From assembly GCA_951406725.2 (NCBI GenBank), contig OX597838.1:9424001-9488000 (forward strand): 64,000 nt of DNA, given 5' to 3'. The stretch's first letter is position 1, and every line of letters starts with the position of its first letter. The notes beneath the pieces are model-generated. The model was given only the letters and a program-made list of their open reading frames with translations. It had not been told where the DNA came from and made no database searches. The position numbers were made by a program, and so were the translations under genes. Origin of the DNA: Octopus vulgaris (Eukaryota). Positions 1,725 to 40,420 of this stretch are shown here, piece by piece.

Positions 1725-1771
<47 letters not shown>

Positions 1772-1774
<3 letters not shown>

Positions 1775-2036
1775 TTTGAAACGTAGAGTAGATGAAAGCT
1801 TTAGCGACTGAAGAAGGGGTTTTTTCTTTGTGGTAATTGTCCTGTATTCTATTTTTTTTTTTGCTGTTTTTAAATAAATGTCCAGTTCCTTTGGTTTGTG
1901 TCTATGTTTTCGCTTATCATTGTGTTCGACGTCCTTTTGGTGTCCTGTACTCATATATGCGTGTATATGTACATGTAGAGGTAGGTACGTACATATATGT
2001 TTATATATATATGCATATGTTTTATTTTATTTATTA

Positions 2037-2040
<4 letters not shown>
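1772..2040 (+). mobile_element. dispersed repeat, Penelope-terminus-like (copy 1)
   Basis: Shares the gaaac... and tgtcctgtactca...tacatgtagaNgtaggtacgtacatatatgttt blocks with the reverse complement of 36270-36570. Confidence 0.55.
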
Positions 2041-2113
<73 letters not shown>

Positions 2114-2123
<10 letters not shown>

Positions 2124-2304
2124 TATAGAGAACTTTACAGGATTAGTACTGTTCATTAAGAGAAATCTTCAGGAAGCTCTGAAATTTCTCTGAATGAAAC
2201 AGTACTAGTCCTGTAGAAGTTCCTTCTATATAATAAATTAATTTTACTCTGCTATGTATTGAGTACCTTACTTACTGTGGTTAACCCCGAATCAACCCGG
2301 GACC

Positions 2305-2308
<4 letters not shown>
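2114..2308. mobile_element. palindromic element with hammerhead-like core (CTGAAGA on - strand, 2166-2172)
   Basis: Inverted arms ~2114-2166 and ~2184-2240, then a tail ending cccgggacctac; homolog at 32417-32558; flanked by (TA)n. Confidence 0.7.
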
Positions 2309-2357
<49 letters not shown>

Positions 2358-2409
2358 CCACACACACACACACACACGTCAAAACACCCATAACTGCGTG
2401 TGTATGCTT

Positions 2410-2456
<47 letters not shown>

Positions 2457-3017
2457 TAATCGTAAGAAATGGTAAGTGGAAGTGAAAAGTGAATGAATGG
2501 AAAAAAAATATTTAAAGGGTAAAAGTAAAAGTGGGATTAGAGTAAATCAATAAAAGAAAATTGAGAAGAAGAGAAAATGAGAGATATGTGGTGGTGGTGG
2601 TGGTGGTGGTGGTGGTGGTGGTGGAGGGGGCAGCAAATGGTGATTAGAGGAAAGAGTCAAAAAATCGAAGTGATTTCGATAGATGAAGTTGGGAAAGACT
2701 AAGAGATGAAGTAAGAGGGAGATAGAGAGAAAGGAGAAGGGAGGGTGAAGCAATCGAGCGTCGATGTTCCGCTTTTCGCCATTATGAAGTTTACGAGGAA
2801 AGAAACGAAATTTATAACCAGCTAAAAGTGCAATAAAAATATATATGAAATATATTGTCGAGTGCAAGTGTACTCTTGGTGGTGGTCATAAGTCTGTGGC
2901 GCAGTATTGACGTGTGATGTGCGATAATTATATAGAAGAAGAAGGAATGCGGTGAGATGGTAAAATCGTTGGCCGGACAAAGTGCTTAGCAATCTTTCTT
3001 CCCCTCCACTACCCCCC

Positions 3018-3140
3018 AAGGTGGCGAGGTGGCAGAATCGTTAGCATGCCAGACAAAATGCTTAGGGATAATTTTGTCCGTCTTGACGTTCTGAGTTCAA
3101 ATTCCGCCGAGGTCGACTTTGCCTTTCATCCCTTCAGGAT
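3018..3140 (+). mobile_element. SINE family B, 5' fragment
   Basis: ggtggcgaggtggcagaatcgttagc...gttctgagttcaaattccgccgaggtcgactttgcc (tRNA-like A/B boxes). Confidence 0.8.
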
Positions 3141-38869: not shown

Positions 38870-39495
38870 CATATACTCATATACATATATATTTTTTTCT
38901 GTGCATTGTTATTTCAGTATACAACTATAGAATTGTTGGTTGTGTGGTTAAAATGCTAGCTTCGCAACCATGCTGTCTAAGTTTCGATCGCATTGTCGGG
39001 CACTTTGAGCGATGTTTTGTGTATGAAAGTGTATTTTACCATAGCTTTGTATCGATCTAAAAGTTATGAGTGAAACTGGGACAAAAGGAAACTGTGTCGA
39101 ATCCTGTCAGAATGATAGATGTTGCTTCTAACTCTTAGTTCTCTTGTGCCACGCATTGAATTGTTGAATCCGAGTCTTTTTCACGCTTACTGAAGCGTTT
39201 TCAATTTTCGTATGTCTATAAAAACCGTGTCTATAAAAATATATCTATAACATGGATGTCTATTAAAAACCATTGGATTTAACGGATTAAAATACGAGAT
39301 GAAATCAGTTTGTGCTGTAGACTTTGCAAAGCAAATGTCAAACATCCAAGACGTCACAGATGTAATACAGGAGATTGAACCAAACCAAGCTCTGGCCAAA
39401 CTAACAAACTACATTTAATTCTGATCATATCTGCCACATCTGCTTCCTGTGAGAAATCACTTTCTTGATTAAGGCGAATAAATAATTATATGAAC

Positions 39496-39778
39496 ACAAT
39501 TGCAGCGTGGAAGGTGTTTGTAAGCCATTTAAGAAACACACAAAAGCCGTTCGATTCACTTCAACATTTAAGTTTAATTTGTCAAAATATTTTCGTCGCT
39601 TTAAGACCGCGACCTGTTCACTGCATCACGGATGCAGCACGGATTTTTGTCAGTGAACAGGACGCGGTCTTAAAGCGACGAAAATATTTTGACAAATTAA
39701 ACTTAAATGTTGAAGTGAATCGAACGGCTTTTGTGTGTTTCTTAAATGGCTTACAAACACCTTCCACGCTGCAATTGT
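39496..39778. mobile_element. 283-bp palindrome (128-bp arms, 27-bp spacer) carrying inverted hammerhead folds
   Basis: Arms 39496-39623 and 39651-39778 are reverse complements with one visible mismatch (gtcgc/gacgc). Confidence 0.9.
39646..39696 (+). ncRNA. hammerhead fold with G3-C8 swapped core (GTGAACA)
   Basis: TTTGTCA-GTGAACA-G-G(T/A)CGC ggtcttaaa GCGAC-GAA-AATATT-T-TGACAAA: 7-bp stem I, 5-bp stem II (perfect in the left arm), palindromic stem III. Confidence 0.65.
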
Positions 39779-40023
39779 TTTCGTTTCGGCACACGATCTC
39801 AGATCAAATCACTTGCTATGCAAGTACATCTCCGTAATAATTGTATGAGTTGTTCTCAATATAAAGAGAGATTGTATGATTTGGTCTTCATTTTCACGAA
39901 TAAAAATAAAAATGAAGTCAGAGCGTGATGCTGATACACATTTATAGCAAAGCGATCGATGAATTTGCCAAAACGAAACAAAGAATTGAACAGATTTACA
40001 AATAAATTCTAAACAGTTCATAT

Positions 40024-40420
40024 GCGCAGGAGTGGCTGTGTGGTAAGTAGCTTGCTAACCAACCACATGGTTCCGGGTTCAGTCCCACTGCGTGGCATCT
40101 TGGGCAAGTGTCTTCTGCTATAGCCCCGGGCCGACCAATGCCATGTGAGTGGATTTGGTAGACGGAAACTGAAAGAAGCCTTGTCGTATATATGTACATA
40201 TATATATGTATGTGTGTGTGTATGTGTTTGTGTGTCTGTGTTTGTCCCCCTAGCATTGCTTGACAACCGATGCTGGTGTGTTTACGTCCTCGTCACTTAG
40301 CGGTTCGGCAAAAGACACCGATAGAATAAGTACTGGGCTTACAAAGAATTTGCTCGACTAAAGGCGGTGCTCCAGCATGGCCGCAGTCAAATGACTGAAA
40401 CAAGTAAAAGAGTAAAGAGT
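40024..40420 (+). mobile_element. SINE family A, full length
   Basis: Colinear with 17069-17521. Confidence 0.9.

Follow-up and report, generated by a model that had tools for sequence, protein, structure and literature searches.

A Penelope-like retrotransposon family of Octopus vulgaris with a natural G3-C8 hammerhead motif in its terminal repeat

Thousands of copies of a Penelope-like element (PLE) in the genome of Octopus vulgaris carry a hammerhead motif in which the canonical C3-G8 pair of the core is replaced by G3-C8. Judged from its sequence, this core is a new natural variant of a known ribozyme, and it may be active. The family came to light through an inverted-repeat stub in a 64,000-nucleotide stretch of contig OX597838.1 (assembly GCA_951406725.2; hereafter the window). 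We are fairly confident in reading this stub as a head-to-head end-repeat insertion of an abundant PLE with a natural G3-C8 swap; we predict that slow cutting by this motif is likely retained in the family, in a dimer or with the help of protein, and that neither arm in the window is active. More tentatively, and with somewhat less than even confidence, we propose that a PLE family of thousands of copies, common to several related organisms, has an active natural G3-C8 hammerhead that so far was a laboratory rescue mutant only and was missed by CUGANGA-based screens, and that its stubs record two reverse transcriptions, one per strand, each at a different start site and at times from different RNAs, joined at the capped 5' end.

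Results and Discussion

A damaged head-to-head stub in the window

The inverted repeat in the window has arms of 132 nt (39492-39623 and 39651-39782) that are 98% complementary and differ from one another at 2 of 132 nt; its predicted fold lies far below shuffled controls (z -34). The motif GTGAACA is found at 39653 on the plus strand and at 39621 on the minus strand. A sequence-only reading of this DNA had described a 283-bp palindrome with arms nearly identical over 128 bp. The inverted repeat and the likeness of its arms are real, but the insertion is larger and lopsided: the right arm, and only this arm, continues about 55 nt past the earlier end at 39778, to about 39838, for a total of 347 bp. 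A target-site duplication of 13 nt, 12 of them alike, brackets the insertion (39481-93 and 39836-48). The features of the locus are as follows.

39492..39838, no strand: whole insertion, a head-to-head pair of PLE pLTRs, short arm left and tailed arm right (by homology)
39492..39626, minus strand: inverted short arm, no tail; G3-C8 core intact at 39621-39615, stem II perfect, a 16-nt deletion takes the 5' strand of stem I
39630..39782, plus strand: direct arm, beginning where the element RNA is inferred to start and ending at the short 3' end of the family
39783..39838, plus strand: tail of about 55 nt between the two 3' ends of the family; the parent ORF likely starts in it, at 39818-20
39481..39493, plus strand: left copy of the target-site duplication, 13 nt, overlapping the arm end by 2 nt
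39836..39848, plus strand: right copy of the target-site duplication, 12/13 alike
39379..39492, plus strand: decayed hAT-like C-terminal dimerisation region, split by the insertion and likely resuming after 39836 (PF05699, E 0.054, below the cut-off)
39646..39696, plus strand: type I minimal hammerhead motif (by sequence), with the following parts
39646-52 and 39690-96, plus strand: stem I, 7 bp
39653-59, plus strand: core G3-U-G-A-A-C8-A9
39660, plus strand: extra G after the core
39661-65 and 39675-79, plus strand: stem II, with a private mismatch at 39662
39680-82, plus strand: GAA box
39683-88, plus strand: palindromic stem III
39689, plus strand: U17, with the predicted cut at 39689/39690

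Neither arm of this copy has an intact ribozyme, and we predict no activity for either. In the right arm, stem I and the core are present, stem II has an A.A mismatch at 39662, and the predicted fold rearranges so that the hammerhead shape is gone. In the left arm, stem II is free of mismatches; a microhomology deletion of 16 nt, bounded by two CAG repeats, has taken away the 5' strand of stem I, and stem II forms without stem I in the predicted fold. The 51-nt hammerhead string quoted in the sequence-only reading occurs on neither strand of the window, as it merges the two arms: its 7-bp stem I is that of the right arm, in which stem II is mismatched, and its 5-bp stem II is that of the left arm, which has lost one strand of stem I. 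Two other copies of the family (L140 and L091) fold both stems (z -2.5 and -3.1). Taken by itself, the locus is a commonplace stub that has suffered damage, and its type of element is known.

The insertion had also been placed within a hAT transposase frame, after ...RINNYM. The flank does read so, and its sole Pfam match is the hAT dimerisation domain PF05699 at E 0.054; because this match is weak and below the cut-off, the hAT label is likely but not shown. Pfam searches with the unbridged hAT fragments of the flank gave nothing relevant, and a TscT match to the bridged flank was disregarded as below the cut-off on an X-rich string. Further downstream, positions 40026-40420 of the window hold a dispersed repeat that is present in many other fetched loci too and resembles an octopus SINE.

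The parent is an endonuclease-bearing PLE

Traced upstream, the arm lies in some copies behind a GIY-YIG endonuclease and a microsatellite-rich spacer. A protein search of the genome gave 150 scored matches, many equal in score, with long open frames. One of these loci (L080) has an ORF of about 1,000 amino acids in which reverse transcriptase (RT) motifs, a C-X3-C-X2-C linker, a GIY-YIG domain and CCHH residues can be read. Pfam detects the GIY-YIG domain in this ORF (PF01541, E 1.8e-5); RVT_1 is matched in four of 26 aligned relatives and not in L080 itself, and a PDB sequence search with the ORF gave no match. The G3-C8 arm is present in all 12 long loci that were fetched. In five of the copies (L093, L096, L103, L106 and L110) the tail runs directly into the ORF, the likely start codon being the equivalent of 39818. 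The arm therefore follows the endonuclease and precedes the ORF, which is the pLTR arrangement of endonuclease-bearing (EN+) PLEs (PMC8557442). Its contiguity with an RT and GIY-YIG ORF bears out what had been predicted for the parent, namely that the arm is the terminal repeat of a GIY-YIG PLE.

The C-X3-C-X2-C linker is seen in three loci (L051, L080 and L081). According to PMC8557442, a CX2-5CXXC linker between RT and endonuclease defines Neptune and Nematis. By this linker, and with a tree that holds no named Neptune or Nematis references, the parent would be classified from its sequence as an RT and GIY-YIG PLE of the Neptune/Nematis type.

The palindrome could in principle belong to a MITE or a foldback DNA transposon with long terminal inverted repeats, its hammerhead likeness being due to chance. 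Long near-perfect inverted repeats, TA-rich targets and target duplications are what such an element would have, and a fixed-end MITE with a target-site duplication had been named as the finding that would overturn the hammerhead interpretation. The duplication is present and does not point to a MITE; the ends are lopsided, the centre differs from copy to copy, many copies have a single arm, and a relaxed hammerhead scan (see below) gave 0.05 matches per shuffled set vs three in real metagenome loci, each behind the ORF. The contiguity of the arm with the RT-endonuclease ORF already refutes a MITE, and we regard this explanation as extremely improbable.

G3-C8 is the family consensus

In exact pattern counts over the octopus genome (2.8 Gb), which a protein labelled Octopus vulgaris by its source (P0001) matches at 100%, the 22-nt core region occurs 5,534 times with G3, C8 and, at the stem II site, T. 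Another base stands at that site in only 41 copies (15 A, 20 C and 6 G). Since 5,534 copies have T vs 15 with A, the quoted hammerhead string is the consensus of the family, GTGAACA included, and the A at 39662 is private to the window. An apparent A/T asymmetry at the stem II site between paired arms was rejected as an artefact of query ascertainment on the same counts. In the motif, U4, G5 and A6, G12, A13 and A14, A15.1-U16.1, H17 and G10.1-C11.1 are all as in known hammerheads, and only the canonical identities C3 and G8 are lacking, G3 and C8 standing there in the 5,534 copies. An Rfam search returned no hammerhead family among 102 matches at E up to 10. In contigs of four public runs, from four organisms, the stem II site is T in 98-99.8% of the depth, and no other letter is listed at positions 3 or 8, where a missing row is no proof.

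Copies that depart from the consensus at the 3-8 pair are unevenly distributed. C3 is found in 15 copies of the family, none of them with G8, so that the route of the swap is not visible within the family. A base other than C8 occurs in 324 copies, and the first 100 of these listed comprise 42 G, 41 T and 17 A. The G3-G8 form, which is predicted to be inactive, is thus over-represented, at 42 of the first 100 of 324 copies vs 15 for the reverse change at position 3. These numbers correspond to about 140 G3-G8 copies, extrapolated from the first 100 listed, and suggest a sub-lineage that was amplified without the 3-8 pair. One G3-G8 ORF, a single row of the protein tree, nests inside the family and not at its base. 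An older subfamily, with several G3-G8 members, shows a strong concentration on a single chromosome (contig C16) among the best matches.

An open frame across the whole arm, seen in one copy (L003), was considered as a source of constraint and rejected, as it is not conserved: the length of loop II is either 8 or 9 nt, and stop codons interrupt the frame in other subfamilies. Coding does not, therefore, account for the conservation of the core.

The 3-8 pair across relatives

We compared the motif with those of related PLEs at the equivalent place. An active sister family in the same genome has C3-G8, with C9, an extra G, a 6-bp stem II and U17. This sister family (L195, minus strand, about 678-725) is very young, with open frames of up to 1,312 amino acids and an asparagine-rich stretch in the ORF. 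A scan of 31 related metagenome loci with positions 3 and 8 left free found three motifs, all C3-G8 and all behind the ORF, vs 0.05 in shuffles. Looser inspection of 17 of these loci added two further C3-G8 and two U3-A8 motifs, which gives C3-G8 in L221, L222, L224, L228 and L234 and U3-A8 in L223 and L226. These seven were aligned, and three more seen by eye were excluded (L225, with U3-A8 and a 3-bp stem II; L236 and L238, with C3-G8 and a broken GAA box). No motif was seen in the remaining seven of the 17 loci, several of whose contigs end too early. Two of the metagenome motifs have further departures, U3-A8 together with C9 in L223 (2490-2537) and U15.1-A16.1 in L221 (4966-5016).

In the resulting alignment of ten motifs, positions 3 and 8 are paired in all ten rows (six C-G, two U-A and two G-C, both G-C rows from the G3-C8 family). 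The stems covary, with changes on both sides in 11 of 12 base pairs. No row departs from U4, G5, A6, G10.1-C11.1 or GAA; subfamilies differ in loop II and in the bases that precede stem I. Covariation of positions 3 and 8 is 0.77 vs 0.24 when shuffled (0/500) and at most 0.23 when the positions are slid. The ten rows were picked by a hammerhead-like scan, and two of them represent one family; the choice of rows by hammerhead likeness favours the stems and not the 3-8 pair.

In the protein tree (19 rows) the G3-C8 family and the C3-G8 family of the octopus are sisters (100/99), and the two sit in a clade (100/100) that also has C3-G8 and U3-A8 members. On this placement G3-C8 is most simply derived from C3-G8, and we infer that it arose from C3-G8 in this lineage. 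By homology, then, the G3-C8 core is a real swap of the C3-G8 pair: the pair-keeping exchange of positions 3 and 8 recognised in the sequence-only reading agrees with relatives that have C3-G8 or U3-A8 at the same place. The PLE clade seems unusually tolerant of changes in the hammerhead core.

Comparison with published hammerheads and PLEs

The comparisons that follow are with the cited passages and alignments of each article. PLE hammerheads have been described with an extra base after position 9 and a palindromic stem III; their activity is low and depends on dimers, and a U3-A8 variant is among them (PMC4209133). The octopus motif resembles them in its pLTR position, the extra base between 9 and 10.1, G10.1-C11.1, the frequent U17, the covariation at 3-8 (U3-A8) and the short palindromic stem III, which implies dimers. 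It differs from them in the G3-C8 core and in a stem I of 7 bp, compared with 4-5 bp in the schistosome motifs. By our own count, the 56 rows of Fig. S3 of that article comprise 53 C3-G8, three U3-A8 and no G3-C8, and 24 of the 56 have U17; the UUU cleavage triplet, singled out beforehand as unusual, is thus a common one among PLE hammerheads.

Compensatory change of the 3-8 pair in nature, as seen here, was noted by Perreault et al. (2011; PMC3088659), where the text of section 8 names U3-A8 only. G3-C8 is mentioned as a tested variant in PMC3884650, and a natural G3-C8 is also absent from the relevant passages of PMC7151607 and PMC2920678. The open literature searched, including the abstract of a 2026 retrozyme preprint, gave no report of a natural G3-C8 family. 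Within the text of these open papers, G3-C8 was found only as a laboratory mutant. The octopus family would complete the natural 3-8 series C-G, U-A and G-C within one element clade, giving evolutionary support to a pair that crystal structures and rescue mutants had revealed. It also indicates that standard hammerhead descriptors can miss entire ribozyme families, and it supplies natural G3-C8, G3-G8 and C3-C8 forms for comparison.

As elements, the octopus copies are like Adineta Pen2a (PMC3846280; PMC8557442, Fig. 2) in their head-to-head inverted ends, one-sided tail, target duplications and bias to (TA)n. Unlike Pen2a, the octopus tail is about 55 nt rather than 30-40, most sampled insertions consist only of the pLTR pair, and some pairs mix subfamilies. 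With the Anolis Poseidon element PAc (PMC11167929) the family shares two internal RT starts that bound the tail, AT-rich targets and a hammerhead near the ORF start. PAc, however, belongs to the Poseidon clade and is naturally C3-G8, whereas in the octopus family the tail likely holds the start codon, some 130 nt downstream of the predicted cut. The engineered C3G/G8C mutant of PAc has the very core that is natural in the octopus family.

Does the G3-C8 motif cut?

We lean towards cleavage of the consensus G3-C8 RNA, a prediction from sequence and analogy in which our confidence is modest. It is favoured because the core is invariant, the pair is kept and an engineered double mutant partly rescues a PLE hammerhead: C3G/G8C in PAc (PMC11167929), in line with the partial rescue by engineered G3-C8 double mutants that the sequence-only reading had mentioned.

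Cutting might be expected to leave copies that begin at the cleavage site. Hits starting at the predicted cut number 133, vs 117 and 218 at the neighbouring bases. Sampled starts are junctions in 17 of 30 cases at the cut and in 10 and nine of 30 at the neighbours, or roughly 75, 39 and 65 copies, about 1% of all copies; at the cut, the stem I complement forms the joint in five of the 17, and microhomology alone could yield these. There is thus no clear pile-up of 5' ends. For Anolis PAc, RNA-seq reads likewise do not end at the cut, and yet that ribozyme is active in the presence of protein (PMC11167929), so that the lack of a pile-up does not refute activity.

The motif could instead be dead or a structural relic of the same element, positions 3 and 8 having drifted in the master and the fold or the sequence being kept for protein binding or as part of an internal promoter. 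Besides the lack of a clear pile of 5' ends, the amplification of the G3-G8 sub-lineage would fit such a relic, as would the deviation of the sister family (C9) and the position of the motif, about 24-35 nt after the inferred RNA start, a distance at which promoter elements often sit downstream of the start. Hammerhead mutants, moreover, leave in vitro insertion of the anole element unaffected (PMC11167929). A drifted relic is harder to reconcile with the fact that, of the double changes possible, the one that became fixed leaves positions 3 and 8 able to form a Watson-Crick pair, as they do in all ten aligned rows. It also fits poorly with the invariance of U4, G5, A6, G10.1-C11.1 and GAA next to a variable loop II and variable bases ahead of stem I; the anole ribozyme, again, is active despite the lack of RNA-seq ends at its cut (PMC11167929). 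We judge a dead or relic motif unlikely and retain a slowly cutting one as the preferred reading.

Cleavage at the predicted site would shorten the RNA by about 60 nt at its 5' end, ahead of the ORF. Such cleavage does not appear to be needed for insertion.

Ends of the insertions and formation of the stubs

Insertions of the family stop at two 3' ends, tailed and tail-less, in roughly equal numbers, and loose ends occur at the same two places in the contigs of two public runs (X16 and X17). Loci L001-L190, which were gathered by several differently biased searches, yielded 62 distinct head-to-head pairs: 49 long+short, two long+long, two short+short and nine with an odd end. Long+short pairing thus accounts for 49 of the 53 pairs with both ends regular (p 7e-11). 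Flanks of 12-15 nt outside microsatellites are shared in 14 of the 62 pairs (by eye, without a chance control); many other pairs lie in (TA)n, and insertions favour (TA)n or AT-rich targets. Head-to-head inverted pLTR insertion is a published PLE pattern (PMC8557442, PMC3846280).

The 5' ends of the arms are sharp, 63 of 124 lying within the first four bases of the arm. Among arms without an upstream spacer, 28 of 75 have GAG preceding the start with a random base before it, where long copies read CAG or TAG. We interpret the extra G at the arm start (equivalent of 39630-39634) as the copy of a cap, carried by an RNA whose first base would be that A. EN+ PLEs may retain a spliceosomal intron near the 5' end; just before the arm, long copies have a branch-point-like motif, a pyrimidine tract and AG; no donor or spliced exon was found, and the spot may be an RNA start instead.

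The arms of a pair need not be alike. Four of 24 pairs (L123, L128, L142 and L154) combine different subfamily loops in their two arms, which suggests two RNA templates per insertion; one master with two unlike pLTRs, or later gene conversion, could also have produced them. These observations can be accommodated by a scheme in which the endonuclease would nick both target strands and reverse transcription would begin at two internal sites, one per strand. The two cDNAs would proceed to the 5' end of an RNA that is likely capped, where short homologies would join them. One arm would then have the tail and the other lack it, and the two would at times derive from separate RNAs. In Anolis PAc the tail likewise lies between two internal RT start sites; cuts are made in both target strands, and a dimeric protein is predicted (PMC11167929).

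Self-priming by fold-back on one template, with both arms copying one molecule, has been proposed for PLE palindromes (PMC3846280). It would agree with the mere two differences in 132 nt between the window arms and with rare variants that are shared by both arms of some pairs (L018, L008 and one further pair). The strictness of long+short pairing and the four of 24 pairs with different subfamily loops speak against it. Fold-back bears solely on how stubs form; we give it about one chance in a few, and it may account for part of the copies. Strict long+short pairing and mixed arms make the formation of inverted PLE insertions testable from a genome alone.

Two smaller observations concern the arms themselves. 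The sharp 5' end with its extra G coincides with the 3'-splice-site-like motif of the long copies. Three loci (L108, about 1745-3067; L106; L036) have tandem arrays of short arms spaced by (TA)n, like tandem retrozyme-like repeats, in which dimeric ribozyme folding would be possible.
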